A stretch of 37,688 nt of DNA from Verrucomicrobiota bacterium. GTDB lineage: Bacteria > Verrucomicrobiota > Verrucomicrobiia > Limisphaerales > AV2. Below the pieces are notes generated by a model, which saw only the letters and a list, made by a program, of their open reading frames with translations, had not been told where the DNA came from and searched no databases. The stretch is taken from the NCBI GenBank assembly GCA_003219345.1, contig QHOP01000093.1, positions 1 to 37,688 on the forward strand. Reading direction: 5' to 3'. Position numbers and translations under genes: made by a program. The first letter of the stretch is position 1. Each line of letters opens with the position of its first letter. Shown piece after piece: positions 2,671 through 16,770 of the stretch.

Positions 2671-3134
2671 GTCCTTACGCGGACACAAACTTCTTCACGC
2701 GGTCGTACCTCCAACTGCCCGACAGCCCGGAGGCGGATCGTCTCCTGGCGACGGCCAGACGAGGTGAAGCCGCCCCGCTTCCGCTGACCTGGTTGCACCG
2801 GCTGGAAGTTCTGAACGCATTTCAACTTCACGTTTTCATCGGACGCGAAGGCGGTCAGACCTTCGTCTCCCCGGAGCAGGCCGCGCTCGCCCACGCGAAT
2901 TTCCGCAGCGACATTCAAAGCGCAGAGTTTCTGCGGTCGGCTGTCATTCCTGCGGCGGAACTTGAAAAGCAATTCGAGGAACTCTCCCTCCGGCATACGG
3001 CGAAGCACGGCTTTCGCACCTACGACCTGTTGCACGTGGCCTCTGCCTTGTTGCTCAAGTGCGACAGCTTCTGGAGCTTCGATCCCAAGGCGTCGAAGCT
3101 GGCCGCGCTGGAAGGGTTCAAAGTCCGCCGCTGA
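2667..3134 (+). CDS. vapC: PIN-domain toxin (VapC-like ribonuclease)
   Basis: Acidic PIN residues are present: YADTNFF (D6), LHRLEVLNA, TYDLLHVASAL, WSFDPK. Translationally coupled to the upstream antitoxin. Confidence 0.8.
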   Translation: MSPYADTNFFTRSYLQLPDSPEADRLLATARRGEAAPLPLTWLHRLEVLNAFQLHVFIGREGGQTFVSPEQAALAHANFRSDIQSAEFLRSAVIPAAELEKQFEELSLRHTAKHGFRTYDLLHVASALLLKCDSFWSFDPKASKLAALEGFKVRR

Positions 3135-3138
3135 ATCA

Positions 3139-4431
3139 ATGAAACTCCTGGTCATCGGTTCGGGCGGACGCGAACACGCGTTGGTCTGGAAACTGGCGCA
3201 GTCGCCGCACGTCACTCGCATGTGGTGCGCGCCGGGGAACGCGGGGATTCAACAGGAGCAAACAGAGAAAACGAAGAGGCCTGTCGAGTGTGTGAATGTC
3301 GGCGCGGAGGATTTGCCTGGGCTGCTCGCGTTCGCGCAGGAGAAAAAACCCGATCTCACCGTCGTAGGACCGGATAATCCGCTCGCGCTGGGCATCGTGG
3401 ATTTATTTCAGCGGAACGGTCTGCGGGTTTGGGGAGCCAATCGGAAGGCGGCGCAGTTCGAGTCGTCCAAAGCTTTTTCCCAGCGGTTCATGGAGAAATA
3501 TGGCATCCCGACGGCGCGTTCGGGAACTTTCAGCGAGCCGGCAGCGGCCAGGAAGTTTGCGGCGTCGCTCGGCGGGCGCTGCGCGGTGAAGGCCGACGGC
3601 CTGGCGCTCGGCAAAGGCGTGTTGCTCACCACCAATTTAGCTGAGGCGGAGAAGGCCATCGACGAAATCATGGTTGGCAAAGTGTTTGGCGCTGCGGGCA
3701 CGAAAATCGTCATCCAGGAATTTCTCGAAGGCATGGAAATCTCTTTGCACGCGCTGTGTGACGGCAAAGTGGCGAAACTTTTTCCGACGGCGCAGGACCA
3801 CAAGCGTGCGCTGGACAATAACGAGGGATTGAACACCGGGGGCATGGGCGCGTATTCGCCCACGCCGTTCTTGACGGACGCGCAACTCGTTGACGTCGCC
3901 AAGATGATTCTCGACCCATTCCTGCGCGGTTGCACGGAGGAGGGGATTGATTTCCGCGGCATTATTTATCCGGGAGTGATGCTGACGAAGGACGAGCCGA
4001 AGGTGCTGGAGTTCAACGCACGTTTTGGCGACCCGGAAACGCAGGTCTATCTTACGCGGCTGGAAAACGACTTCGTCGAATTGCTCGATGCGAGCGTCAA
4101 CGGCACGCTCGGCACAATGGAATTGAAATGGAGTCCGCTGGCGTCGGTCTGCGTGGTGATGGCCTCAGGCGGTTATCCCGGCAGCTACGCGAAGGGCAAA
4201 CCGATTCACGGCCTGGATGGCGCAGCGCGGCTGCCGAACGTTAAAGTGTTCCACGCAGGCACAGCGCGGGCGGGTGAGCAAATCGTGACGAGCGGGGGTC
4301 GTGTGCTCGGAGTAACGGCGTGGGCGAAGGATTTACAGGCGGCGCAGTCAGCCGCCTACGCGGTAGTGGAGCGGATTAAGTTCGAAGGGGCTCATTTCCG
4401 CCGCGATATCGCCGCCAAAGCGCTGGGCTGA
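3139..4431 (+). CDS. purD: Phosphoribosylamine-glycine ligase
   Basis: MKLLVIGSGGREHALVWKLAQSP..., ATP-grasp core GLALGKGV, EFNARFGDPETQ, C-terminal GGRVLGVTA. ATG at 3139 is chosen over the 2962 ORF start, which overlaps vapC. Confidence 0.95.
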   Translation: MKLLVIGSGGREHALVWKLAQSPHVTRMWCAPGNAGIQQEQTEKTKRPVECVNVGAEDLPGLLAFAQEKKPDLTVVGPDNPLALGIVDLFQRNGLRVWGANRKAAQFESSKAFSQRFMEKYGIPTARSGTFSEPAAARKFAASLGGRCAVKADGLALGKGVLLTTNLAEAEKAIDEIMVGKVFGAAGTKIVIQEFLEGMEISLHALCDGKVAKLFPTAQDHKRALDNNEGLNTGGMGAYSPTPFLTDAQLVDVAKMILDPFLRGCTEEGIDFRGIIYPGVMLTKDEPKVLEFNARFGDPETQVYLTRLENDFVELLDASVNGTLGTMELKWSPLASVCVVMASGGYPGSYAKGKPIHGLDGAARLPNVKVFHAGTARAGEQIVTSGGRVLGVTAWAKDLQAAQSAAYAVVERIKFEGAHFRRDIAAKALG

Positions 4432-4432
4432 G

Positions 4433-5179
4433 TCATTGGCCCGCGGACTGCGGACTCGTATGCTGCTTTTCCCAGGCGTCGAAATTTCCATCATCTGACG
4501 TTGCCTCGACGATGCGTCCATCCCCATACGCATAAAGCCGCGCCCACTTCCCGTCCGGCTTGCGGTGCTCCTCCGGGTCGCGCAAGAGCAAAGCATTGGC
4601 TGGAACAACGATTTCTGGCCTATCTGAGACAAGCTGAAAGAGACGCAGTCCGAGCATGGATTCTCCCGCGGAGGTAGAGAAATAGTTTCTTAGTTGAAGC
4701 AAGTCGGTGGGGGTTTGATTGGTGTGATCGCTTGCGAACCTTTGCAACGCCTGCGGTAATTGAAGGCAAATGTTTCTCATGGCTTCCCGTTTCTCCGTCA
4801 GGAGCCCCTGCTGGAGTTCTCCCGGCGACATCGTGGTCGGCTGGTTTTGTGTCGTGTTCAACCGGGCCTCGAGCCGGCGATTTTCCTCCCGCAACAGTTG
4901 AGTCGCGTTTGTTTGCCGGCGAAGCATCCCCACTTCCCCCCGCAGTCTCATCAATTCCCTGAACTGTTCGTCGGAGAACGCTGCTTTCGCCTGGGCGACA
5001 AGGTTCGACAGGCGCCGGTTCTCCGCCGTTGACTCTGCCAGTCGGTCGGTTTGCTGCCGTAGAGCCGCGCGCTTTTCGCGCAATCCGGCCCTGGCATCGC
5101 GTTGGACCACCACCGGCGTCGCGAGGCTGGCCAAAATCACCGCGCTGACGATGCCGAGTTTGACCGGTATCATGTTCAT
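4433..5179 (-). CDS. Membrane-anchored coiled-coil protein with a type-A C-terminal domain; partner of the upstream ECF sigma fusion
   Basis: Start MNMIPVKLGIVSAVILASLATPVVV (N-terminal anchor). Heptad-rich LRQQTDRLAESTAENRRLSNLVAQ...LRGEVGMLRRQTN. C-terminus ...KWARLYAYGDGRIVEATSDDGNFDAWEKQH is paralogous to the C-terminus of 5176..6612. Its ATG overlaps the upstream stop (ATGA at 5176-5179). Confidence 0.75.
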   Translation of the reverse strand: MNMIPVKLGIVSAVILASLATPVVVQRDARAGLREKRAALRQQTDRLAESTAENRRLSNLVAQAKAAFSDEQFRELMRLRGEVGMLRRQTNATQLLREENRRLEARLNTTQNQPTTMSPGELQQGLLTEKREAMRNICLQLPQALQRFASDHTNQTPTDLLQLRNYFSTSAGESMLGLRLFQLVSDRPEIVVPANALLLRDPEEHRKPDGKWARLYAYGDGRIVEATSDDGNFDAWEKQHTSPQSAGQ

Positions 5180-6612
5180 TGGTTTGCCGGCGTGGCCGCA
5201 TGCTCTTTCTCCCACGCGTCGAAGTTTCCATCCGCTGAACTGTGGGTCTGGGAAGCGCCATCGGCAAAACCATAGACCCTTGACCAGGTGCCGTCCGGCC
5301 ATTGGTAGGCCTGCTTTTCCCGCAGCACAATGACGTTTCCCGCATTCGTAAGCGCATTTCGCGATCCTCGATAAACGATTTCGAACTGGTTGGTCACTTG
5401 AGTAAACTGAGCCAAATCGTCCAGAACCGGATCAGCGTTGAACGCCTCCGCGAAATAGCGGGCCGCCTGATCAAAACTCGCGGGAAACTGATCTTGGTTG
5501 TCCAAGGAATAAAGGAGAAACGCGAAGAGAAAATCCTTGGCGACACGCGCTCTAGCGACGACTTCCTCTTTTAACTGCAAGGGTGTTTTCGCTTGATCCG
5601 ACTGCTGTGCATTCTGCTCCCGCAGCCTGCGATTTTCCTCCTGCAACGCGGCCAGATCATTTGTCTGTTGCCGCAGCATCGCCGCTTCGTCGCGAAGTCT
5701 CAGCAGTTCGCTTGAGCGATCGTCCGCGCCTGGGGCCTGCGCCAGCAGATTGGACAGCCGCTCGCGCTCGCTCTGCAATCGAGCCAGCTCATCCGCCTGC
5801 TGCCGGGACGATGCGTCCGCTGCGCGCATCCTGGCCTGGGCTTGATGTTGAATCACCAAAGTCGTCGCCACGCTGGCAGCGGCGATGGCGCCGATAATGC
5901 CGGTTTTGAGTTTGGTCGCGGTCATGAATTTCAAGAGAGTGAGTGTCGTTCCGCCGGCAGCGGCGCCGCCGGCGATTGATCCGCCGGTGAGTGTCGCGAC
6001 AAAGGCGGTCGGAGCGGCAGTAGTGGCATTGCCCGTGAGTGCCAGAGCCAGGGCTGTCGCTGTCGAGGTCACGCCTTTACGCGCGAGTTGGGCGCGCAGT
6101 TTTTCCAGCGCGCGCTCCACGCGCATTCGCGCCGCGTTCTCGCTCAGTCCCAACCTGGCGCCCACTTCCTTAAGGCTTTGGTTCTGGAAATAGCGGAGCA
6201 ACACAGCGACGCGGTCCTTTTCGCCGAGTCTGTGCATGGCTTCGTCCAGCACGGGAAGGAGGTCGTCCCAGGCCGGCTCGGATGCGGGATTGCGGAGGAG
6301 TTCATTCATGGAATTGGCCTCCTGTTCGCGCGCCTTCCGCCGTTGTTCCGTGCGATTGGCGCGCAGCGCTACCAGGCGCGTCGTCGTGTAGAGCCAGCCG
6401 GCCAGCGCGGGATGGTTCCTGAGGCGTCGCGCCTGCCGGGCGAGCTCAGTGAAGACTTGCTGCGTCACGTCCTGGGCGCGATGGATGTCGCCGCCTGCCA
6501 GTCGCAACGCGGCGGAATAGACAAGGTCCACGTGCCGCCGAATCAGTTCGGTGAAGGCGGATTCCGACCGCTCGGAGGCGTACCGGCCCAACAATTCAGC
6601 GTCTTCACTCAT
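5176..6612 (-). CDS. ECF sigma factor fused to a hydrophobic anchor, coiled coil and type-A C-terminal domain
   Basis: Sigma70 region 2 (FTELIRRHVDLVYSAALRL...DVTQQVF...AGWLYTTTRL). Region 4 (LLRYFQNQSLKEVGARLGLSENAARMRVERALEKLR). Then TATKLKTGIIGAIAAASVATTLVI, the coiled coil LARLQSERERLSNLLAQ...LRDEAAMLRQQTNDLAALQEENRRLREQ, and ...WSRVYGFADGASQTHSSADGNFDAWEKEH. Confidence 0.9.
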   Translation of the reverse strand: MSEDAELLGRYASERSESAFTELIRRHVDLVYSAALRLAGGDIHRAQDVTQQVFTELARQARRLRNHPALAGWLYTTTRLVALRANRTEQRRKAREQEANSMNELLRNPASEPAWDDLLPVLDEAMHRLGEKDRVAVLLRYFQNQSLKEVGARLGLSENAARMRVERALEKLRAQLARKGVTSTATALALALTGNATTAAPTAFVATLTGGSIAGGAAAGGTTLTLLKFMTATKLKTGIIGAIAAASVATTLVIQHQAQARMRAADASSRQQADELARLQSERERLSNLLAQAPGADDRSSELLRLRDEAAMLRQQTNDLAALQEENRRLREQNAQQSDQAKTPLQLKEEVVARARVAKDFLFAFLLYSLDNQDQFPASFDQAARYFAEAFNADPVLDDLAQFTQVTNQFEIVYRGSRNALTNAGNVIVLREKQAYQWPDGTWSRVYGFADGASQTHSSADGNFDAWEKEHAATPANQ

Positions 6613-6625
6613 CGCGTCTCATTAG

Positions 6626-6655
6626 TTAATGCCCGCGGGACGTGAAAATCGCACT
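6626..6655 (-). promoter_or_regulatory. Conserved upstream element of the sigma array (copy for 5176..6612)
   Basis: Minus-strand AGTGCGATTTT, 18-nt spacer, CATTAA. The -10-like hexamer ends 13 nt before the ATG. See the motif finding. Confidence 0.3.
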
Positions 6656-6801
6656 GGAAAATTTTTGGTGTTTATCGCGCGGAATGGCACGACGCGGGGG
6701 CGAAGGGATTTTCGGAGCGCGCGCGATACGGGCAGCCATCGGAAAAATTCATTTCCGCCGACGCGCATTTCCGCGCTACAATGCGCCAAGGATGCGACGG
6801 C

Positions 6802-7445
6802 TTATTGCCGGGCGGGTGTCGAAATGATGTGTTCTGCCTCCCAGGCCTTAAAGTCGTCGTCCGACTCAATAATCTGCGAGCTTCCGTCAGCCATGCAGTA
6901 AACGCGCGCCTGCTTTCCACTGGGTGCAATAAAAGTTTGCCGGTCGCGAATTACGGCCACTGCGCCTCGTGGAATGCCTTTCAGTTCGTTGAGCGATCCA
7001 CGATAGACGATGTCAAATTGGTTTGTGCCGCTCAGCGGATAGTCGCGCAGATACTTGGCGACCTGATCCAGGCTTGAGGGGAAACGGTCTTGATGGTCCA
7101 AGGCATACATGCCGAATGCGAGGCCGAGATTCCGGGCATCGATGGGCCCTGGCGATTGCTTTTAAGTTGGGCTGCCAGTTCGTTGGTTTGTTTTTGCAGC
7201 ATCTCCGCCCGACTGCGCAGTTTGGCCAGTTCGTTCCACTGGCTGTTCGTCGAGCTCTTCGCCTCAGCGATCCGATTGGAAAGCTGTTCTCCTTCTGCGA
7301 TCAGCTCGGTCAGTTGCTTGTCTTGCCGGCGGAACACCCCATCGTTTTCGCGCATCTTCGCCTGGGAGTTGAGGTGGAGGATCAAGGTTATTGCCAGACC
7401 GATGGCGATAGTGGCGATGATTAGAGTGATTTTGAGTTTTTTCAT
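6802..7445 (-). pseudogene. Frameshifted type-A membrane-anchored coiled-coil partner gene
   Basis: ORF 7032..7445 gives the anchor and coiled coil (MKKLKITLIIATIAIGLAITLIL...LRSRAEMLQKQTNELAAQL). ORF 6802..7110, in another frame, gives the type-A domain (MYALDHQDRFPSSLDQVAKY...NQFDIVYRGS...ARVYCMADGSSQIIESDDDFKAWEAEH). Homology in the second frame extends upstream to a TAA at 7162-7164, so the shift lies in 7144-7161 (cgccagggccc). Confidence 0.75.
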
Positions 7446-7485
7446 AATTCGATTCCAATGAGACGTGAAGGTTCGACTTTCCCCG

Positions 7486-8988
7486 TCAGCGAGTTTTTAC
7501 CCACCGATTGGTCACCCTGCTATCAGCCATGCCCCCGTACGTCATGCCGATCGTGAAACGCAAATCCCACGTTTCATCCACTGGTGCTTTTTGCGTAATC
7601 ACCCACTCGTCCCCTTGCTGCAATTTGCTGACTAGGCTGTCTGCCTGCACAATCTCGTAACGTTCCAGAATGGCCTCATCTACGGGCGATCTAAAATAGG
7701 GTGACAGTTCTGAAAGTGCGCTCGGGAACTGGCCATTGTTGGCTTTGCTGTAATTGCGTAACGCGCCGGCCAGGATGTCGAGGACGCGCGATTCCGCATT
7801 TGCCCTGACGATACTCATGGCGCGGCGACATTCCTCGTCGCTGCTGAGGGTGTTCGGATAAATTGAGTCGATCCAATCCTGCTCGCCGAGAAACTGAAGT
7901 TCTGGAATTTTCCCGGCGGGATTTGCTTCCAGCCATTGCTTAAGATGATTTGCGCGCTCCGACCAGACTTCTTCTGCCGTTGCCAGCGCATTGCTTCCAG
8001 TCGCCGGATCTGAGGCCATCAGTCGCGTCAATTCCCGAACATCCCGGTTCAAACGACCGACTTGGCCCCGGAGTCGCAGCAGGTCGTTGTACTGGCCGCT
8101 GGGAAGTGATCTTGAACTGTTTGCCTCCGCGAGCAGGTTTGCGAGGCGCTCATTTTCTTTTTGAAGCTCAGCCAACCGGCCTGCTTGTCGTTGCAGCGCG
8201 CGGTCTTGTTCGGCCAGTTTCGTTTGAGCGCGGTGCTGAACCAACACCGGCGTTATTACGCTTGCAACGACGATCGCGGCGACCAGAAGTTTTTGTGTTG
8301 CAGTCATGGCGATGGTTTCGACGGTGGTCGCGATGGTTGTTCCGACAAGAGCGGCGGCAGTCGAAATGGTAACCGCCAGCCCAACCGGCGCGGCTTGGAC
8401 GGCATTGGCCGAGATGACGACGACCAGTCCGCTTGCGCCGATGGTGACGCCGCGTTTGGCGAAGAAGTCGCGCAGGCGTTCCACGGCGCGGCTGACGCGT
8501 TTTTGCGCAGCGTCTTCGCTCGTGCCGAGAGTTTGGGCCATCTCTCGCGCGGACATGCGTTCAAAGTAGCGCAGCAAAAGCGCGTCGCGGTCCGCCTCGC
8601 TCAGTTCGCCAATGGCGGCATCGAGGTGCGGGGCGATGTGTTCCCAGAGAGCGTTGGGTTCGGCGGAAAGCAGTTCGTTCATGGCGACGGCCTCCTGTTC
8701 GCGGGCGCGACGGCGCACATCGGTGCGGACGGTCTGCGCGGCGATGTTTTGCGCGGTGCGGTGCAGCCAACCGGACAGCACCGGACGATCCGCGAGTTGG
8801 GCGAAGTTTTTCGCGAGCGCGACGAACACGCCTTGAGTCACATCTTCCGCGAGGTGCGAATCACAAACCATCCGAAGCGCGGCGGAATAGACGAAATCGA
8901 CATGGCGGCGCACCAGTTCGGCGAACGCTGGTTCGGAGCGGTGTTCAGCGTAGGCGCGCAGCAGTTGTGAGTCGGTCTGGTCGTTCAC
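7486..8988 (-). CDS. ECF sigma factor fused to an anchor, coiled coil and type-B C-terminal domain
   Basis: GTG start. Region 2 FAELVRRHVDFVYSAALRM...DVTQGVF...SGWLHRTAQN. Region 4 LLRYFERMSAREMAQTLGTSEDAAQKRVSRAVERLR. Conserved SANAVQAAPVGLA, anchor LLVAAIVVASVITPVLV, coiled coil LAELQKENERLANLLAE...LRLRGQVGRLNRDV. Type-B domain IPELQFLGEQDWIDS...NNGQFPSALSELSPYF...ILERYEIV...EWVITQKAPV. Confidence 0.9.
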   Translation of the reverse strand: MNDQTDSQLLRAYAEHRSEPAFAELVRRHVDFVYSAALRMVCDSHLAEDVTQGVFVALAKNFAQLADRPVLSGWLHRTAQNIAAQTVRTDVRRRAREQEAVAMNELLSAEPNALWEHIAPHLDAAIGELSEADRDALLLRYFERMSAREMAQTLGTSEDAAQKRVSRAVERLRDFFAKRGVTIGASGLVVVISANAVQAAPVGLAVTISTAAALVGTTIATTVETIAMTATQKLLVAAIVVASVITPVLVQHRAQTKLAEQDRALQRQAGRLAELQKENERLANLLAEANSSRSLPSGQYNDLLRLRGQVGRLNRDVRELTRLMASDPATGSNALATAEEVWSERANHLKQWLEANPAGKIPELQFLGEQDWIDSIYPNTLSSDEECRRAMSIVRANAESRVLDILAGALRNYSKANNGQFPSALSELSPYFRSPVDEAILERYEIVQADSLVSKLQQGDEWVITQKAPVDETWDLRFTIGMTYGGMADSRVTNRWVKTR

Positions 8989-9035
8989 TCACCCAATAGT
9001 AGCCGCCGCCGCCCAAATCGGACAGGGAATGTAGC
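8809..9035. repeat. Direct repeat copy A: promoter region plus the first ~180 nt of sigma gene 7486..8988
   Basis: 8942-9035 matches 9724-9817 over 94 bp with no mismatch seen by eye. 8809-8868 matches 9664-9723 with one mismatch. 8869-8941 has no counterpart in copy B. Confidence 0.9.
8996..9024 (-). promoter_or_regulatory. Conserved upstream element of the sigma array (copy for 7486..8988)
   Basis: Minus-strand TGTCCGATTT, 17-nt spacer, TACTAT. The -10-like hexamer ends 7 nt before the GTG start. Confidence 0.3.
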
Positions 9036-9054
9036 GGTGGGAGAGCAACGGACC

Positions 9055-9345
9055 TTACTCGCGTTCCATTCCAAAACGTGGGTCGCGCCGGTGATGGCGC
9101 ACGAGCGTCACTCGGATTCCACCAGCTATTTCGCGATAGATAACGTGATACGGGAAGCGTCTGAGGTTTGCTCGATGGAACCCGGTCTTAATCAAGTGAA
9201 ATCTACTGGGCTTCGCTGCTGCCACGGCGATCAGCCGGCGCATCTCCACCTTGAACTCCTCCCCCAACCTCTGCGACAGCGCGTCGTAACGCCGCAGCGC
9301 CTCAGCCACATCCTGCTCGACGGCGGGATGGTATTCGACCCTCAC
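9055..9345 (-). CDS. ParE/RelE-family type II toxin
   Basis: 96 aa, MRVEYHPAVEQDVAEALRRYD...FHRANLRRFPYHVIYREIAGGIRVTLVRHHRRDP, the typical plasmid-stabilisation toxin pattern. 4-nt overlap with the upstream antitoxin. Confidence 0.8.
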   Translation of the reverse strand: MRVEYHPAVEQDVAEALRRYDALSQRLGEEFKVEMRRLIAVAAAKPSRFHLIKTGFHRANLRRFPYHVIYREIAGGIRVTLVRHHRRDPRFGMERE

Positions 9346-9572
9346 CGTTGGCGGCCGGTCTCGACTCGTCTCCAGAACTCGGCTTCCGGGAGCGGTTGAA
9401 CTTTGCCGCTTTCGATCTCACGTTCCCGCCGTTCCACTTCGGCCAGTTCCTCCGCTTCGGACCACGCCTCGCTCATCGGCGGCAGCGAACTCAACAGCGA
9501 CTCGGCCAGCAGGACTCGCTGCTCCACCGGCAAAGCGAGCACGGTCTTTTCGATTTCCTCAATCGCTGACAT
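9342..9572 (-). CDS. Addiction-module antitoxin (putative addiction module component family)
   Basis: 76 aa, MSAIEEIEKTVLALPVEQRVLLAESLLSSL...AWSEAEELAEVERREREIESGKVQPLP, the characteristic family pattern. Coupled to the toxin. Confidence 0.75.
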   Translation of the reverse strand: MSAIEEIEKTVLALPVEQRVLLAESLLSSLPPMSEAWSEAEELAEVERREREIESGKVQPLPEAEFWRRVETGRQR

Positions 9573-9663
9573 GCCGACAGGCTACGACCTACAGGGCGGG
9601 TTTGCAAGACCGGACGCGAGCTTGGCGTGATGGCGCTGGGCAGGGATTTAATGAGCGCACAAA

Positions 9664-9817
9664 TTTCGCGAGCGCGACGAACACGCCTTGAGTTACATCT
9701 TCCGCGAGGTGCGAATCACAAACTGTTCAGCGTAGGCGCGCAGCAGTTGTGAGTCGGTCTGGTCGTTCACTCACCCAATAGTAGCCGCCGCCGCCCAAAT
9801 CGGACAGGGAATGTAGC
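9664..9817. repeat. Direct repeat copy B: degenerate duplicate of the promoter and 5' end of the sigma gene, with a 73-bp internal deletion
   Basis: See copy A. It keeps the GTG (9767-9769) and would encode only MNDQTDSQLLRAYAEQFVIRTSRKM before a stop, so it is a gene remnant. Confidence 0.9.
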
Positions 9818-10730
9818 TTTGATGGCAAGAGCATGAATCGGAACTGGGTTGCGAAAGCCGGGGCCAAGGGACGGTATCCCACCGCCCGCCCTCCAGGCTT
9901 AAGGGGATAAGCCCGCGGAGACTAATGGCCGAGCGATGATCCAAGTCCCGATTCACCGGCGCTTTCTGGGTGATCACCCAATCTTCCCCGGAATCCACAC
10001 CGCTTTCGATGTTCAGGTTTTTCGCTGGGACGATTTCATAGCGTTCCAGTAATGCATCATCCATGGGCGAGGCGAAATAGGGTTTCAACTGCGAGAGATC
10101 GGCGGGGAATTGGCCATGATTGGCCTGGGCGTATTGCCGGAGCGCCTGGAATGCCGCTTTTGAAAACGCGAGTTCCCCCTGGGAGCGAAGGTGACTCATC
10201 GTTTGACGGTATTCGTCGTCCGTGACTGAGAGATTTTCGACAGAGTCAATCCAATTGAAGTCGGAAAGGAATTGCAGCTCCGGGATCATTTCCGACGGCG
10301 TGTCCTCCAGCCACTGCCTGAGCTGAGCAACGCGCGCCCGCCTCATTTCCATTTCGTCTACCAACGGAGCGGTGAGGTTGATGCTGGCGGCCAACTCTTC
10401 CATTTGCTGAAGCCCCTCGCGGATGCGGCGGACTTGGCGACGGAGCGGTTCCATTTCCTGGACGGCCTTGCGAAGTTGACCGACCTCGGCCCGCAGTTTC
10501 ATCAATTCACTGAGTGCTGCGTCGTCGAGCGAATGGGAACTCTTCACCTGAGCGACGTTATTCGACAGGCGTTGGTTCTCTGACGACAATTGCTCCAACA
10601 GAACAGCCTGCTGCTGCAACGTCAATCTCTTCGAAACCAAAAGGCCTTCCGCCCGCTTTTGAATCAGCCACGGCAACACCAAGACCGCGGCTAGAATCGT
10701 GCCCAGTATGCCAAATCTCAGCTTTTTCAT
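9771..10730 (-). CDS. Membrane-anchored coiled-coil protein with a type-B C-terminal domain; partner of the upstream ECF sigma fusion
   Basis: MKKLRFGILGTILAAVLVLPWLI anchor. Coiled coil LLEQLSSENQRLSNNVAQ...LRAEVGQLRKAVQEME. Type-B domain IPELQFLSDFNWIDS...NHGQFPADLSQLKPYF...LLERYEIV...DWVITQKAPV. ATG overlaps the upstream stop (TAATG at 10728-10732). The last 16 codons are encoded by repeat copy B and the ~40-aa tail looks like read-through. Confidence 0.7.
   Translation of the reverse strand: MKKLRFGILGTILAAVLVLPWLIQKRAEGLLVSKRLTLQQQAVLLEQLSSENQRLSNNVAQVKSSHSLDDAALSELMKLRAEVGQLRKAVQEMEPLRRQVRRIREGLQQMEELAASINLTAPLVDEMEMRRARVAQLRQWLEDTPSEMIPELQFLSDFNWIDSVENLSVTDDEYRQTMSHLRSQGELAFSKAAFQALRQYAQANHGQFPADLSQLKPYFASPMDDALLERYEIVPAKNLNIESGVDSGEDWVITQKAPVNRDLDHRSAISLRGLIPLSLEGGRWDTVPWPRLSQPSSDSCSCHQSYIPCPIWAAAATIG
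9778..9806 (-). promoter_or_regulatory. Duplicated copy of the sigma upstream element, now upstream of the TA cassette
   Basis: Identical to 8996-9024 because it lies inside repeat copy B. Confidence 0.3.
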
Positions 10731-12082
10731 TATTTCGATGCCTCAGGTGGGACGATCCGCCGTTTTTCCCAGGCGTCAAAATTGCCATCGGCCTCGCTAT
10801 GTTGCATGCCGATGCCGCCAAGCATGGTGTATACCTTCACCCACTTGCCGTCGGTGTTTTTCCACGGATGCTTTTGCCTGATCAGGATGATGTCGTTCGG
10901 ATGAGCATACTTGTCGGGAGCGGGCAGCGGCCCCTGGAAAACGATTTCAAATTGGTCGGGAGAAAAATTGGCAAAATTGGTTCGGTTCCCGTACTCGGTG
11001 GACATGATGCCGGCCACCTGCGCGAGGTTGGTGGGAAACTGGCGGTGTTGACTGGCGTACCCGCGCGTCACACCACCGAGTCTCATGCAATAATCCGTTC
11101 TGGCGTTAAGCTCGGGACTGTCCACGGTTTGCTGGTCCTGGGGGCCGTGCAGGTCTTCGCGGAACCTGGTTCGCGCCCGGTTCAGTGACGCCTGGAGTTG
11201 CCTGTCTTCTTCCCGTAACGCGGCCAGGTCGTTGTTTTGCTCTCGGAGCGCTGCCACTTCATCACGCAATCTTTGCAACTCTTCCCCAGTATTTACTGAC
11301 GGACGGCTTAGCAATGCAGCGAGACTTGAAAGCCGTTCGTGCTCCGCTTGCAGTGGCGCCGATGCAGCCACTTGTTGGCGCACCGTCCCGTCCGCCTCCC
11401 GGATTGTGGTTCCCGTCCCCGCAGCGGCGCTCGCAAGGGACGCAGCGGAAAGCGTTGCTGCCAATCCGACCGGCGCGGCCTGGCAGGCATTGGCCGCAAG
11501 CACCACGGAGAGCGCGGCAGCTGAAGTTGTGATTCCCCGTTGGGACAGCAAATCACGCAGTTTGTCGAGCGCGCGCGACACGCGCTTTTGCGCGGCGTCG
11601 TCGCTCACACCGAGCCCCAAACCCACGGATCGCAAATCCTGGTTTTTGAAGAAGCGCAGCACCAGCGCGTCGTAGTCCGATTCGCTCAATTCGGCCATGG
11701 CTTCGTCCAGCACCGGACGCAGGCGCTCCCAGTCAGATGTGGTGTCGGGCGTCGAGTCGAGGTTTTCCATAGCCTGCCTTTCGCGGGAATGCCGGCGGAA
11801 TTCATCGCGCCGGAGATTGAGCGAGATGTTGCGCGCACTGCGGCAAAGCCAGCCAGCGAGCGAACCGTTCCCGGCCAGCTTTGGGGACAAGGACCGCGCG
11901 CCGCGCGCCAGACCGATGAAGACACTTTGGGCGACCTCGGCGGCAATGTCCGGCGAATCCACCTGCCGCAAGGCGGCGGAATACACGAGGTTCGTGTGCC
12001 GGGCGACGATTTCCGCGAAGGCGGATTCCGCGCCGTTTTGCACGTATTCGCGGAGGAGTTGGGCGTCGGACTTTGGTTGCAT
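10730..12082 (-). CDS. ECF sigma factor fused to a coiled coil and type-A C-terminal domain, lacking the anchor helix seen in its paralogs
   Basis: Region 2 FAEIVARHTNLVYSAALRQ...AGWLCRSARN. Region 4 VLRFFKNQDLRSVGLGLGVSDDAAQKRVSRALDKLR. Coiled coil LQRLRDEVAALREQNNDLAALREEDRQLQ. C-terminus ...KWVKVYTMLGGIGMQHSEADGNFDAWEKRR. Confidence 0.9.
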   Translation of the reverse strand: MQPKSDAQLLREYVQNGAESAFAEIVARHTNLVYSAALRQVDSPDIAAEVAQSVFIGLARGARSLSPKLAGNGSLAGWLCRSARNISLNLRRDEFRRHSRERQAMENLDSTPDTTSDWERLRPVLDEAMAELSESDYDALVLRFFKNQDLRSVGLGLGVSDDAAQKRVSRALDKLRDLLSQRGITTSAAALSVVLAANACQAAPVGLAATLSAASLASAAAGTGTTIREADGTVRQQVAASAPLQAEHERLSSLAALLSRPSVNTGEELQRLRDEVAALREQNNDLAALREEDRQLQASLNRARTRFREDLHGPQDQQTVDSPELNARTDYCMRLGGVTRGYASQHRQFPTNLAQVAGIMSTEYGNRTNFANFSPDQFEIVFQGPLPAPDKYAHPNDIILIRQKHPWKNTDGKWVKVYTMLGGIGMQHSEADGNFDAWEKRRIVPPEASK

Positions 12083-12091
12083 CTCACTTAT

Positions 12092-12120
12092 TTAATAACC
12101 GTCCGCTGCAAAATCCGACA
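12092..12120 (-). promoter_or_regulatory. Conserved upstream element of the sigma array (copy for 10730..12082)
   Basis: Minus-strand TGTCGGATTTT, 17-nt spacer, TATTAA. The -10-like hexamer ends 9 nt before the ATG. Confidence 0.3.
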
Positions 12121-12169: not shown

Positions 12170-13342
12170 TCATCCGCAGGAAGAAATGGTATCGCGTCTG
12201 AATCGTCGAAGCATTACCCAAAGCCAGATGACTACAAATGTCAGACCGCTCCCGAATACTCCCCAAAACAGCAGTAATGAAAGATGCGGCGGCACTTGGC
12301 GATTGGCGTGAGCGATCAACAGATGAACCCCGATCATGAAAATCGCCTCGAAACAGGCCAGCCAAAGCAGGTGTCGAAACAGAAAATCAAACGTAACTTC
12401 CCGTCGTTCCGGCGCGAGCCAGTAGTTGCGATTGGGTATTTTGATCGAGTTGACTGGCAGGAAGCGCACAAAATAGCCAAGCCCAATCAAGAGCAGTGGC
12501 AACCCGATGCCCAATGCCATTGAGAAAAAAAGGTAAGTGGAACGATCCATCCAAATGTCGGGGCGTCCCTCCAAATCAAAATGGGTGGCGACGACTTTCT
12601 GCGAAACAATTGCATTGGTTAGAATTGCCGCGGCGGTCGCTTTCAGTCCCGCAGTTCCTTTGGTTGCGGTTGCCGTGGACAGGGCGGTTGTTGCGGCAGT
12701 GATCGAAACTGAGGTAGCCAAGCCGACGGGGGCGGCCTGGACGGCATTGGCGGATAGGACGACGACGAGGCCGCTGGCTCCGACGGGGACGCCGCGTTTG
12801 GAGAAGAACTCACGCAGGCGTTCGACGGCGCGGCTAACGCGTTTTTGCGCGGCGTCTTCGGATGTTCCCAGGGTTTGTCCGACTTCGCGAAGGCTTTTGT
12901 TTTCGAAGTAGCGCAGGAGTACGGCGGTGCGGTCGGTTTCGTCGAGCGATTCCATCGCTTCGTCGAGCAGCGGTTCGATGTCAGCCCAGACGGGCTGGAA
13001 GCCTGTCCCACTGTCAGCCTGCAAATTCATCGCATTCATCTCGGTGGCAATTTGCTCGCGGAGCTGGCGTCGCGATTCCCGGCGGATTACGTCCACAGCA
13101 GTCCGGCGTGTGACCTGATAAAGCCACGCCGTCAGAACGGTGTCCGGTTTCAGCTTGTGAGCGTTTCGAGCGAGGTCGGCAAAGACCGATTGCGCGATTT
13201 CCTCGGCCAATGGCGGCGAGCGGACCTGGCGCAACGCCGCGGAATAGACCAAATTCAAATGGCGCCGGACCAGCGCTGCGAAAGCTTCCTCTGAGCGTTG
13301 TCGCGTGTATTGCTGTAATAAGTCCAAGTCGCTCGCTGTCAT
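12170..13342 (-). CDS. ECF sigma factor fused to a polytopic membrane domain (DUF1648-like)
   Basis: Region 2 FAALVRRHLNLVYSAALRQ...TAWLYQVTRR. Region 4 LLRYFENKSLREVGQTLGTSEDAAQKRVSRAVERLR. SANAVQAAPVGLA, then HFDLEGRPDIWMDRSTYLFFSMALGIGLPLLLIGLGYF... with about 4 hydrophobic helices. ATG at 13342; an alternative GTG lies at 13348. Confidence 0.85.
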   Translation of the reverse strand: MTASDLDLLQQYTRQRSEEAFAALVRRHLNLVYSAALRQVRSPPLAEEIAQSVFADLARNAHKLKPDTVLTAWLYQVTRRTAVDVIRRESRRQLREQIATEMNAMNLQADSGTGFQPVWADIEPLLDEAMESLDETDRTAVLLRYFENKSLREVGQTLGTSEDAAQKRVSRAVERLREFFSKRGVPVGASGLVVVLSANAVQAAPVGLATSVSITAATTALSTATATKGTAGLKATAAAILTNAIVSQKVVATHFDLEGRPDIWMDRSTYLFFSMALGIGLPLLLIGLGYFVRFLPVNSIKIPNRNYWLAPERREVTFDFLFRHLLWLACFEAIFMIGVHLLIAHANRQVPPHLSLLLFWGVFGSGLTFVVIWLWVMLRRFRRDTISSCG

Positions 13343-13351
13343 CTTCACAAG

Positions 13352-13381
13352 TGTATCGCCACAGACGCTGAAAATCCGACA
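13352..13381 (-). promoter_or_regulatory. Conserved upstream element of the sigma array (copy for 12170..13342)
   Basis: Minus-strand TGTCGGATTTT, 18-nt spacer, GATACA. The -10-like hexamer ends 9 nt before the ATG. Confidence 0.3.
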
Positions 13382-13464: not shown

Positions 13465-14544
13465 ATGAAACAAAGCGGGTTTAACCTGTGGCTGGCGGGG
13501 TGGCTGATCTTTGGGGCAATTCAGTCGGGCATTGGCGCGGAGACCAATGCGCTACCGCATTTTCAGGAGGTGTTTCGCCTCCTACGTGCCAATCTGCCGA
13601 ACGCGAGCGAAGAGGAGTTGAACCAGGCAGCCGTGCAGGGGTTATTGAATCAATTTTATCCGCGAGTGATTCTTGTCACCAATGGGGCGCCGGCCGGCGT
13701 CCGTCCGGAAGGGTCGCTGTTGAGCAGGACGAGAGTGTACGATGACTCGTATGGATACCTGCGCGTGGCCAGGGTTGCGACCGGGCTGGCAGACGAGATT
13801 AAATCGGCTCACGACAGGCTCGACGCCACGAACAAGCTGAAAGGCGTGGTTCTGGATTTACGCTTCGCCGACGGCCAGGATTATACCGCGGCGGCGAACG
13901 CGGCGGACCGATTCTTAAGCAGGGAACAACCGCTTCTGGACTGGGACGAAGGTTCAATTCATTCGACCGGGAAAGCGGACGCGATCAACGTTCCGGTTGC
14001 AGTGCTCGTGAATCGACGAACGACTGGCGCGGCCGAGGCGCTGGCAGCGGCGCTGCGCGAAACAGACGCGGCGGTGTTGATCGGCTCGCGGACGGCGGGG
14101 CAGGCGCGGATTTTCAAAGAGTTCGATTTGTCGAACGGCCAGCGGCTGCGCGTTGCCACCGGTCAGGTCAGCGTCGGCAAAGGCAAACCGTTGTCCGCAA
14201 CGGGAGTCGCGCCGGACATAGAGGTCCTCGTCAGCGGCGAAGATGAAACGGCGTATTTTGTCGATGCGTTCAAAGTCTTATCCAGGCCTATCGCCCAGTT
14301 GAGAGTGACGAACAATGTTGCGCCGACCGCTTCGACAAACCGGGGGTCGCGGCGGCCCCGCAACGAGGCCGATCTCGTCCGGATGCAGCGCGAAGGTTTG
14401 AGTCCGGACGATCAAGATGCGCCAACACCTGCAGCCAAAACGGATGAGGATTCGCCGGAGCAGCTCGTGCGCGATCCGGCGCTGGCGCGGGCTCTCGATC
14501 TGTTGAAGGGCATCGCGATCGTGGAACGGTCGCTTCCGCGCTGA
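13465..14544 (+). CDS. Secreted S41 (C-terminal processing peptidase)-like protein, predicted catalytically inactive
   Basis: Signal peptide MKQSGFNLWLAGWLIFGAIQSGIGA. S41 core GVVLDLRFADGQ...VAVLVNRRTTGAAEALAAALRE...AVLIGSRTAGQA. Gly188 and Gln213 sit at the nucleophile Ser and general-base Lys positions. Confidence 0.7.
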   Translation: MKQSGFNLWLAGWLIFGAIQSGIGAETNALPHFQEVFRLLRANLPNASEEELNQAAVQGLLNQFYPRVILVTNGAPAGVRPEGSLLSRTRVYDDSYGYLRVARVATGLADEIKSAHDRLDATNKLKGVVLDLRFADGQDYTAAANAADRFLSREQPLLDWDEGSIHSTGKADAINVPVAVLVNRRTTGAAEALAAALRETDAAVLIGSRTAGQARIFKEFDLSNGQRLRVATGQVSVGKGKPLSATGVAPDIEVLVSGEDETAYFVDAFKVLSRPIAQLRVTNNVAPTASTNRGSRRPRNEADLVRMQREGLSPDDQDAPTPAAKTDEDSPEQLVRDPALARALDLLKGIAIVERSLPR

Positions 14545-14598: not shown

Positions 14599-16770
14599 AT
14601 GAGAACCATTCTTTTCGTTTGCACCGGAAACGTTTGTCGCAGCCCCATGGCGGAGGGCCTTTTCCGGAACGCCGTCAAAGGTCGCGGGGACTTCCGCGTG
14701 TTTTCGGCGGGGGTGGGGGCGATTGAAGGCCAGCCGCCCAGCGCGTATGCAGTGCAGGCCTTGAGGGAATTGGGCATTGACATCTCGCAGCAGCGCAGCC
14801 GCATGCTCACCGCGGACGTGGTGAACGAGGCCGATTACATTTTCGGCATGACGCACGGGCACGTCGATGCGGTCAACCTGCTCTACCCCCACGCGACCGA
14901 GAAGACTTTCCTGCTCCGCGAATTTGATGAAACGCTGGACGTTTTTGAGAAGGACATTTCCGACCCCATTGGCGGATCGTATGAAATTTATCTCGATTGC
15001 CGCGACCAGATCGAACAAGGGATCGCTTCGATACTGAAATTCATCGACCAGACTTCCGGCGGCGCCGCTGCCGGCGCGGCCCCGGACCGGACCGTGACCG
15101 TGGCGCTCGGCGCGGACCATGCCGGCTACGAGTTGAAGGAGGCGCTCAGGCAACATCTGGAACAACGCGGCTTGAAGGTCCTGGACTTCGGCACCACCTC
15201 GATGGACTCGGCCGACTATCCTGATTTCGCGCAGGCCGTGGCGCACAACGTGGCCGATCAGAAAAGCGACCTCGGGCTTTTGGTTTGCGCCACGGGCCTC
15301 GGCATGAGCATCGCGGCCAACAAAGTGCCGGGCGCCCGCGCGGCGTTGGTTTTCGACGAAAAAATGGCGGCGTTGGCCCGGCAGCACAATGACGCCAATG
15401 TGCTTTGTCTCGGCGGCAAATTCGTCGGCGCGGAGCAGGCGAAGAAGATGGTGGACGCCTTTCTCGACGCCCATTTCGAAGGCGGACGTCACGCGCGTCG
15501 CGTGGCCAAGGTGGAGCGCATCGAAGCTGCGGGGAGGTTGCGGTTGGGAATGGTTGACCCGGACGTCGCCGAGGCGATCCGTTCGGAGCGACAACGGCAA
15601 CAGGAGAACATCGAACTGATAGCCAGCGAAAACTTCACCAGTCCGGCGGTCCTGGAGGCGCAAGGCTCGGTGCTCACGAACAAATACGCCGAAGGCTACC
15701 CGCGCAAACGCTGGTATGGTGGTTGTGAAAACGTGGATATCGCCGAGCAACTGGCAATAGATCGCGCCAAACAGCTTTTCGGCGCCGAACACGCGAACGT
15801 GCAGCCACACTGCGGCAGCAGCGCGAACATGGCGGTCTATTTCGCGTTTCTCAAGCCAGGCGACAAAATGCTGACGATGGACCTGAGCCACGGCGGCCAT
15901 CTCACGCATGGCAATAAAGCAAATTTTTCCGGCAAATTTTTCGAAATCATCCATTACGGCGTGCGCAAAGCAGATGAGCAGATCGATTACGATCAGCTCG
16001 CTAAAATGGCGCAGGAACACCGGCCCAGGATGATTACGGTCGGCGCCAGCGCTTATCCGCGCAGCGTTGACTTCAAACGGATGGGCGAAATTGCGCGCGA
16101 AGCAGGCGCGCTGCTGCTGGCGGACATTGCGCATGTCGCCGGATTAGTGGCTGCGGGGTTGCATCCGAGTCCGATTGAGCACGCTGATTTCGTGACGACG
16201 ACCACGCACAAAACGCTGCGCGGACCGCGCGGCGGACTGATTCTGTGCCAGGAGAAATACGCGAAGGAAGTGGATTCGCAGGTGTTCCCCGGCATTCAAG
16301 GTGGACCGCTGATGCACGTCATCGCCGCGAAAGCGGTCTGTTTTCACGAAGCCTTGCAGCCGGCGTTCAAAGAGTACCAGCGGCAGATCGTGAAGAATGC
16401 GAGGGCGCTGGCCGAAGGGATGAAGCGAAACGGCTTCCGCCTGGTCAGCGGTGGCACTGACAATCATCTCATGCTGGTGGACGTCGGCTCGCGCGGCCTG
16501 ACCGGCAAGGAATGTCAGACAGCCCTGGACGATGCGGGCATCACGGTGAACAAGAATACCATCCCGTTTGAAACGCGCTCGCCGTTTCAGGCCAGCGGCG
16601 TGCGATTGGGCACGCCCGCGGTGACCACGCGCGGCATGAAGGAGCCTGAAATGGCCGCCATTGCGGACATGGTCAGCGAAGTTCTGTTCGACATTAAAAA
16701 TGTTGACGGGGCGCGGAAGGTGCGCCAACGTGTTCGTGAATTAACCGCAAGATTTCCCTTGCCGTATTGA
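14599..16770 (+). CDS. glyA: Single-ORF fusion: LMW protein (Tyr/Arg) phosphatase, ribose-5-phosphate isomerase B and serine hydroxymethyltransferase
   Basis: aa 1-150: [14 protein letters not shown]-loop plus DISDP. aa ~165-310: [15 protein letters not shown]...[24 protein letters not shown]...DANVLCLGG (RpiB/LacAB). aa 318-723: [39 protein letters not shown]...[14 protein letters not shown] (SHMT PLP lysine). No stop codon between the modules. Confidence 0.85.

Follow-up and report, generated by a model that had tools for sequence, protein, structure and literature searches.

Contig QHOP01000093.1 of a soil Verrucomicrobiota bacterium (assembly GCA_003219345.1), whose entire 37,688 nucleotides (nt) are referred to as the window, carries seven related genes between purD (2962-4431, plus strand) and the gene of an S41 peptidase (13465-14544). 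All seven lie on the minus strand and are transcribed in the order S4, S3, P3, S2, P2, S1, P1 (Table 1). Six of them (S1 to S3 and P1 to P3) had been described in an earlier note written from the DNA alone, and all six lie at the coordinates given there. S1 to S4 are extracytoplasmic function (ECF) sigma factors since they contain Sigma70_r2 and Sigma70_r4 domains (PF04542 plus PF08281/PF04545 in Pfam) and match TIGR02937 above cut-off with E values of 1e-20 to 1e-25. In contrast, P1 to P3 are free partner proteins devoid of a sigma domain. Neither for the C-terminal regions of the sigma proteins nor for P1 to P3 did scans of Pfam and NCBIfam yield any family. The start codon of P1 overlaps the stop codon of S1 (ATGA), as does the start codon of P3 with the stop codon of S3 (TAATG). 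The C-terminal region of S4 harbours three strong transmembrane (TM) segments within residues 273-374 according to hydropathy, and the remaining proteins end in a globular module of one of two types, A or B. The sigma cores are independent of the type of this head: S1 and S3, both of type A, share 38% identity in a full-length alignment, as against 57% between the sigma region of S2 (type B) and that of the module-less S4 (BLASTP).

Table 1. Genes of the array and conserved boxes upstream of its sigma genes (window coordinates; HMM, hidden Markov model; AF2, AlphaFold2)
Feature	Position	Strand	Description	Evidence
S4	12170..13348	-	ECF sigma factor with the common post-sigma linker and a different, multi-TM C-terminal region; no A/B module	Pfam r2 and r4; sigma HMM 1e-95
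S3	10730..12082	-	ECF sigma factor with type A module (10733-11143); TM helix and juxtamembrane motif deleted	Pfam, BLASTP, hydropathy, alignment
P3	9771..10730	-	Free partner: N-terminal TM helix (10659-10715), helical stalk, type B module (9864-10358)	BLASTP, hydropathy
S2	7486..8988	-	ECF sigma factor, linker, TM helix (8233-8289), helical stalk, type B module (7489-7983)	Pfam, BLASTP, AF2, hydropathy
P2	6802..7445	-	Free partner: TM helix (7374-7430), stalk, type A module; broken by a deletion	BLASTP, comparison with L006 and L005
S1	5176..6612	-	ECF sigma factor, linker, TM helix (5848-5904), helical stalk, type A module (5179-5595)	Pfam, BLASTP, AF2, hydropathy
P1	4433..5179	-	Free partner: TM helix (5102-5158), stalk, divergent type A module (4436-4822)	BLASTP, hydropathy; 248 residues in L006
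Upstream box of S1	6646..6654	-	GTGCGATTT, about 32 nt before the start codon	
Upstream box of S2	9015..9023	-	GTCCGATTT; duplicate at 9797-9805 within the 94-nt repeat	
Upstream box of S3	12111..12119	-	GTCGGATTT	
Upstream box of S4	13372..13380	-	GTCGGATTT	

A full copy of the fused protein consists of a cytoplasmic sigma2-sigma4 domain, an Ala/Thr-rich linker, a juxtamembrane M-T-x-T-K-L-K motif, a single TM helix, a stalk and the globular module of about 130 to 165 residues. Hydropathy reveals one strong TM helix each in S1 (residues 237-255) and S2 (residues 234-252), and P1, P2 and P3 each possess an N-terminal anchor which is preceded by Lys/Arg. The stalk is helical, rich in charged residues, composed of two segments and coiled-coil-like; in a crude heptad test the coiled coil is clear for S2 and P3, where none of 200 shuffles reaches the observed value. 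In an alignment of 41 fused proteins the linker (RGV...AVQAAPxGLA), the juxtamembrane motif (lk.MtmTKlk) and the TM helix are retained, as are, within the stalk, QHQAQARLR just behind the TM helix and LxxLxxENxRLS and ELLRLRGEVGxLRxQ in the two helical segments. The region between sigma4 and the TM helix comprises solely the conserved Ala-rich linker of about 55 residues. The earlier statement that the module follows a coiled coil instead of a prepilin helix is supported in so far as a TM helix and a helical stalk precede it. Within 16 residues or fewer upstream of the TM helix, 41 of 54 fused proteins contain a Met (about 32% would be expected by chance), and the free partners start at this conserved Met (MKKLKI, MKKLRFG, MATTKLK). 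The fused form therefore differs from the free one by a sigma domain and a linker placed upstream of one Met.

The similarity between free and fused proteins extends beyond the module alone, as the former match the entire C-terminal half of the latter including TM helix and stalk. Within the window, BLASTP relates the type A proteins to each other (S1-P1, E 1e-43; S1-C-terminal part of P2, 2e-25; P1-S3, 3e-25; C-terminal part of P2-S3, 3e-9) and S2 to P3 as the type B proteins (39% identity over 279 residues, E 4e-54). This agrees with the earlier assignment of type A to S1, S3, P1 and P2 and of type B to S2 and P3, and the pairings A+A (S1/P1), B+A (S2/P2) and A+B (S3/P3) are seen as claimed. 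The two types had, however, been regarded as separate, which does not hold true: comparison by hhalign of an alignment of 27 type A sequences (A1) with one of 29 type B sequences (A2), both compiled from homologues, results in a probability of 96.5% and an E value of 7e-10 over 93 columns. The region in common comprises a long helix ending in Y..N.GQFP..L.Q...YF, an (F/Y)EIV strand and a VI.(R/Q)(E/K) strand. Judged by these profile alignments, A and B are two divergent subfamilies of one module with a homologous core. The confident AF2 models of type A (predicted local distance difference test score, pLDDT, 91.9; predicted template modelling score, pTM, 0.85) and type B (pLDDT 94.4, pTM 0.89) exhibit a common layout in which one long helix and one or two short helices are followed by four strands, the long helix packing against the latter. 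Type A bears an extra C-terminal GNFDAWE helix in its model, and type B an extra N-terminal helical extension (IPELQFL..DWI).

Kinship of the module with pseudopilins was assessed by means of a comparator from a related locus (L002), a 273-residue N_methyl protein with a textbook H-X9-DG C-terminus whose 1,814 relatives are annotated as PF07963 plus PF07596 (DUF1559) or as ‘H-X9-DG protein’. The exhaustive search supplied 172 sequences for a deep profile of type A, which was compared by hhalign with a DUF1559/HX9DG profile of 120 sequences. The alpha1-C helix is matched with 98.1% probability (E 1e-13, 39 columns) at a score of 88.6, while 30 column-shuffled queries score 19.8 at most and the reversed query 12.9. 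The C-terminal halves, which contain the beta-sheet and were compared separately, are matched with 96.3% probability (E 1.5e-9, 43 columns) at a score of 55.1 versus at most 19.6 for shuffles. Both blocks are collinear between type A and the DUF1559/H-X9-DG proteins, and for the helix a second hhalign run (A1 against A3) reaches 97.7% and E 2.5e-12. In addition, the nine-residue string FADGHSEIH is common to both family consensus sequences, and a plain hmmsearch with the HX9DG model, performed against a small database, matches two sigma-type A proteins (L010, E 1e-6; L009, E 1.5e-4) in two collinear segments each. As for solved structures, the HX9DG profile also aligns with the alpha1 helix of type IV pilins and of GspG, through MY..DNN. 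Within the type A consensus D-G is nearly invariant and followed by H-S-E, the H ten residues upstream falling into the deleted stretch; S1, P1 and S3 deviate after DG.

From these profile matches we conclude that type A represents a DUF1559/H-X9-DG globular domain in truncated form. Preserved are the alpha1-C helix with Y-A-x-D-N-x-x-Q-F-P at its end and the beta-strands up to F-A-D-G-H-S-E-x-H, and lost are the prepilin leader, the alpha1-N helix, the H of H-X9-DG and some 130 residues of a central insert. No N_methyl match (PF07963 / TIGR02532) occurs in any protein of the window, and a regular expression for the prepilin motif finds none of 144 type A representatives; with the leader missing, the modules are therefore pilin-derived domains, not pilins. 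At L002 (1678-7737, minus strand) genes for free type A and type C proteins adjoin a true H-X9-DG prepilin-type gene and a gene encoding a 1,735-residue Flg_new_2/Glug protein, and this is the sole examined locus where the module family is physically linked with a real DUF1559-type pseudopilin.

The family is large. At E<=1e-3 the exhaustive type A profile search returned at least 1,536 representative clusters (50% identity), 974 of them at E<=1e-10. Among the top 144 new representatives, 54 contain a sigma domain (about 460-500 residues), at least 34 are free and TM-anchored (about 230-260 residues) and one carries two type A modules in tandem. The genome matches of a single-sequence scan (six loci) all stem from metagenome-assembled genomes of Verrucomicrobiota. 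Other genomes of this phylum repeat the arrangement in which a free partner comes after the fused sigma gene, and the stop codon of the first gene often overlaps the start codon of the second. Sigma-A precedes free B in L004 (orthologous to S3/P3) and free A in L001 (the S1/P1 pair), sigma-B precedes free A in L005 (orthologous to S2/P2), and in L008, L009 and L011 a free A-like gene comes after sigma-A. Partnerless exceptions are L010 and the sigma-C gene of L001. When 98 modules whose architecture is known are placed on a neighbour-joining tree, the distribution of fused and free forms needs 32 changes compared with a mean of 31.5 for random labels, the nearest neighbour has the same architecture for 48 of the 98 modules, and both forms occur together within clusters at roughly 40% identity or more, all this for modules which are short, divergent and clustered at 50% identity and among which some ‘free’ forms may be truncated calls on short contigs. 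Fused and free forms, for which the earlier note had proposed a tree of the modules, are interspersed on it. That A and B are divergent versions of one domain belongs to the conditions which the note itself had named as refuting its view.

Further variations of the theme were encountered among the relatives. In P0080 two type A modules in tandem are joined to a sigma factor, and in the type B relatives P0055, P0056, P0059, P0060, P0067 and P0076 the Y..ANNGQFP..LSQLLPY unit occurs once more at the C-terminus. The P3-like protein P0073 shows a 23-residue patch of S3-type sequence, MYARQHGQFPTNLAQVAGI, directly after its TM helix, and must therefore have arisen either by gene conversion or as a chimera of the assembly. 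A third, all-helical C-terminal module of about 290 residues without any Pfam or NCBIfam match, termed type C, is sigma-fused in L001 (2055-3908, 617 residues) and free in L002 (8630-9832, 400 residues; 44% identity, E 6e-72), where its gene comes directly after a free type A gene. The orthologous fused gene is frameshifted between sigma part and module in L004 (6564-8004), has an in-frame stop at the corresponding place in L005 (6960-8468) and is interrupted by an inverted sigma fragment at the contig end in L001 (1-948). These interruptions may reflect sequencing error, paralogue-driven misassembly or real fission, which are indistinguishable here.

In front of all four sigma genes of the window stands a conserved element made up of TGTC(C/G)G(G/A)TTT and, about 17 nt further on and directly ahead of the start codon, an AT-rich box resembling TAtTAAt. 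This element is likewise present at seven other loci (L001, L004, L005 and L008-L011) and absent before partner genes. The window contains six matches versus 2.1 expected, a number which none of 100 shuffles attains. The canonical ECF promoter GGAAC-N16-CGT was sought upstream of the genes in the window and not found. We regard the element as a candidate group-specific promoter or, alternatively, a candidate nearly leaderless start.

Two genes of the array look degenerate in this strain. P2, which had been described as frameshifted, is indeed broken, but by an 82-bp deletion at 7147/7148 rather than by a single-base frameshift: a near-identical scaffold (L006), whose flanking BLAST segments are 100% and 99.7% identical, encodes an intact P2 of 241 residues in an otherwise identical sequence, and L005 contains an orthologue of 247 residues. 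In S3 a deletion near residue 225 has removed about 38 alignment columns including the juxtamembrane motif and the TM helix, which the L004 orthologue and the family consensus retain. Between P3 and S2 a cassette of about 690 bp (9036-9723), absent from L006, is flanked by a perfect 94-nt direct repeat (8942-9035 / 9724-9817) and by 60 nt that partly copy the 5' end of S2 (8809-8868 / 9664-9723). The cassette contains the gene of an antitoxin (9342-9572; PF09720 Unstab_antitox, E 2.5e-10) and, next to it, a 96-residue open reading frame (9055-9345) which looks ParE/RelE-like by eye and has no match in Pfam.

Outside the array, the S41 (Prc/Ctp-type) peptidase gene, located on the plus strand, divergently adjoins S4. 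This neighbourhood is not kept beside the relatives, and the idea of the peptidase being a dedicated site-1 protease was dropped for lack of conserved adjacency in their loci. A 723-residue open reading frame at 14599-16770 (plus strand) joins in an unusual triple fusion a low-molecular-weight phosphotyrosine phosphatase (LMWPc), a ribose-5-phosphate isomerase B (LacAB_rpiB) and a serine hydroxymethyltransferase domain. At 32538-34754 (minus strand) a 738-residue protein combines a PPC pre-peptidase domain with a lysyl oxidase domain (E 3e-37).

Taken together, we favour with moderate confidence the view that paralogous one-component ECF sigma factors are arrayed in tandem at this locus, each tethered to the membrane, equipped with a pseudopilin-derived sensor and accompanied by a paralogous partner. 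The modules are presumably periplasmic, as suggested by the positive-inside rule, by the free partners and by the extracytoplasmic nature of pseudopilins. With its module in the periplasm, the sigma factor would be kept inactive at the membrane, where the free partner and the fused protein may pair by way of their homologous TM helices and stalks to form a hetero-oligomeric sensor whose heads may be alike (A+A) or unlike (A+B, B+A). An envelope cue perceived by these heads would then free the sigma domain. The most plausible route would be regulated proteolysis, as in hybrids of the IutY or ECF52 type, and there is precedent for membrane-fused ECF sigma factors being activated in this way (PMC8999054). 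The freed sigma factor would act on the conserved promoter-like element in front of the sigma genes.

A number of observations weigh against this interpretation, and they have to be considered along with alternative explanations. Concerning the origin of the module, type B yields no significant direct match to DUF1559/HX9DG in hhalign (P 0.07), so that the pseudopilin flavour which the earlier note attributed to both types stands for type A, whereas type B appears tied to pseudopilins through type A only. A pilin fold of the whole module is putative, as a Foldseek search of the Protein Data Bank (PDB) with both AF2 models, one of the checks which had been suggested, gave nothing at E<=1e-3. 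At noise level the best template modelling score of type A, 0.35, belongs to the Thermus thermophilus pilin PilA4 (6xxd) and the type B list is headed by the Clostridioides difficile minor pilin PilW (7t31) with E 3.8. To our knowledge, no structure of a DUF1559 globular domain has been solved, which accounts for the empty result. Searching PDB sequences with both family profiles produced noise only. PF07596 finds no match at E<=10 in the 27 type A and 29 type B members, which thus lie below the Pfam gathering threshold, and the module is equally missed in all alignment members by T2SSG and the NCBIfam models at E<=10. The resemblance to GspG which had been proposed did not reach significance either: when four GspG sequences of PDB entries, which make up a shallow alignment, were compared by hhalign with type A (P 0.02-0.03) and type B (P 0.13), ALDMYKLDNSRYPTTEQGL and the Y-x-x-D-N-x-x-(F/Y)-P motif came to lie in register. 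One might take these failures, together with the missing family matches, for a sign that a short motif has arisen convergently in an unrelated new fold. Yet two separate collinear blocks are significant towards DUF1559 where 30 shuffles of each score 20 or less, the nine-residue string is identical in both consensus sequences, and HMMER alone detects two members. Convergence is therefore already disfavoured and in our opinion very improbable. Regarding topology, the linkers of S2 and S4 reach Kyte-Doolittle (KD) values of 1.6-1.9 over 19 residues and are hydrophobic enough for a second TM helix, which would render the module cytoplasmic. Stalk and module could then regulate the sigma domain directly, similar to the extensions of ECF41 and ECF42, and S3, despite having lost its main TM helix, still keeps its reading frame open. 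Opposed to this, the linker of S1 remains below KD 1.2 and that of S3 attains 1.55 at most, short of the cut-off of 1.6 (19-residue windows); the single N-terminal anchor of the free partners, situated after Lys/Arg, predicts the homologous module to reside outside, and the parent DUF1559 domain is extracytoplasmic. We consider a cytoplasmic module improbable.

The heptad signal is weaker in proteins other than S2 and P3, and no anti-sigma domain (ZAS/zf-HC2, RskA or FecR) is detected by Pfam or NCBIfam between sigma4 and the TM helix. Partner pairing, ligand and proteolytic release are hypothetical, and free type A proteins without a nearby sigma gene exist at L002. Moreover, S3 without its TM helix and P2 with its deletion look degenerate in this strain. 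Together with the toxin-antitoxin cassette, inserted with partial duplication of the S2 5' end, and the degenerate FADGH motifs in the modules of P1 and S3 (the latter reading TMLGGIGMQH), this could mean that the paralogues of the array are in decay and of little use to the strain today. However, S1, S2, P1 and P3 are intact and conserved relative to L006, and the family is very large with its key motifs preserved, so general decay has a low probability in our estimation. As regards the role of the partner, it may instead act as a negative regulator or decoy which shields the fused sigma factor from the activating protease or signal, either by pairing with it or by competing for its cue, rather like RseB does on RseA. 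The same architecture and translational coupling would be expected in that case, the partner lacks an output domain, and unlike heads within a pair (A+B, B+A) fit a modulator. The data do not tell activation from inhibition; the free type A and type C proteins of L002, with no sigma gene nearby, imply that partners also have a sigma-independent life, which speaks against this role. Such a function of the partner seems possible although rather unlikely. More speculative still, and in our eyes doubtful, is the notion that the heads of the membrane-tethered sigma factors are ‘pilin-mimic’ sensors which dock on a pseudopilus or type IV-like machinery or bind the ligands of their DUF1559 paralogues.

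Among known systems, the DUF1559/H-X9-DG proteins (PF07596 SBP_bac_10; ‘prepilin-type processing-associated H-X9-DG protein’ of JGI) share with the module the MYA.DNN helix end, the FADGHSEIH strands and the occurrence in the Planctomycetes-Verrucomicrobia-Chlamydiae (PVC) superphylum. In contrast to them, the module has an ordinary TM helix and a stalk in place of prepilin leader and GFTLIE, lacks the central insert and the H of H-X9, scores below Pfam and NCBIfam thresholds and is joined to, or paired with, an ECF sigma factor. GspG/PulG (PDB 1T92, 3G20, 3FU1) resembles it in the end motif of alpha1-C, which is in register, and in the succession of a long helix and a small beta-sheet, whereas the match is insignificant (P 0.02-0.13, no Foldseek match) and the module displays neither a prepilin signal nor any sign of the GspG calcium loop. 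The sigma/anti-sigma hybrids (IutY of Pseudomonas putida, ECF243; SCO4117, ECF52; ECF48/53) likewise combine an ECF core with a C-terminal TM segment and an extracytoplasmic domain, the latter being presumed for the window proteins, and their likely logic is membrane tethering and release (PMC8999054). Unlike these, the proteins described here are devoid of a ZAS, FecR or RskA domain, possess a pilin-derived sensor on a helical stalk, are followed directly downstream by a sigma-less paralogue and belong to the phylum Verrucomicrobiota. The ECF groups with C-terminal extensions (ECF classification 2.0, Casas-Pastor et al. 2021, PMC7826278) follow the same general principle, in that the extension takes the place of a separate anti-sigma factor; in the main text of that classification the word ‘pilin’ does not occur and no pilin-like extension is mentioned. 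Fused membrane-spanning extensions of ECF sigma factors as such are thus already known, while the pilin-derived head, the stalk and the sigma-less twin are described neither in the main text of the classification paper nor in the review.

DUF1559 constitutes the largest paralogue family in planctomycetes, with 68 copies in P. limnophila, two of which are essential (PMC10632474), and has no known function. Should the heads indeed mimic pilins, the state or cargo of this PVC-wide system would be coupled to ECF-dependent transcription, and A, B and C heads in conjunction with fused and free partners would make up a combinatorial receptor set. Under the favoured interpretation as membrane-tethered sigma factors with paralogous partners, a new type of sensor and the architecture of a fused sigma factor plus its sigma-less twin would be added to ECF signalling. 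The family would also provide a natural example of the repeated interconversion of fused and split forms of a signalling protein, and sigma-dependent transcription would offer a genetically tractable read-out for whatever DUF1559-type domains bind.

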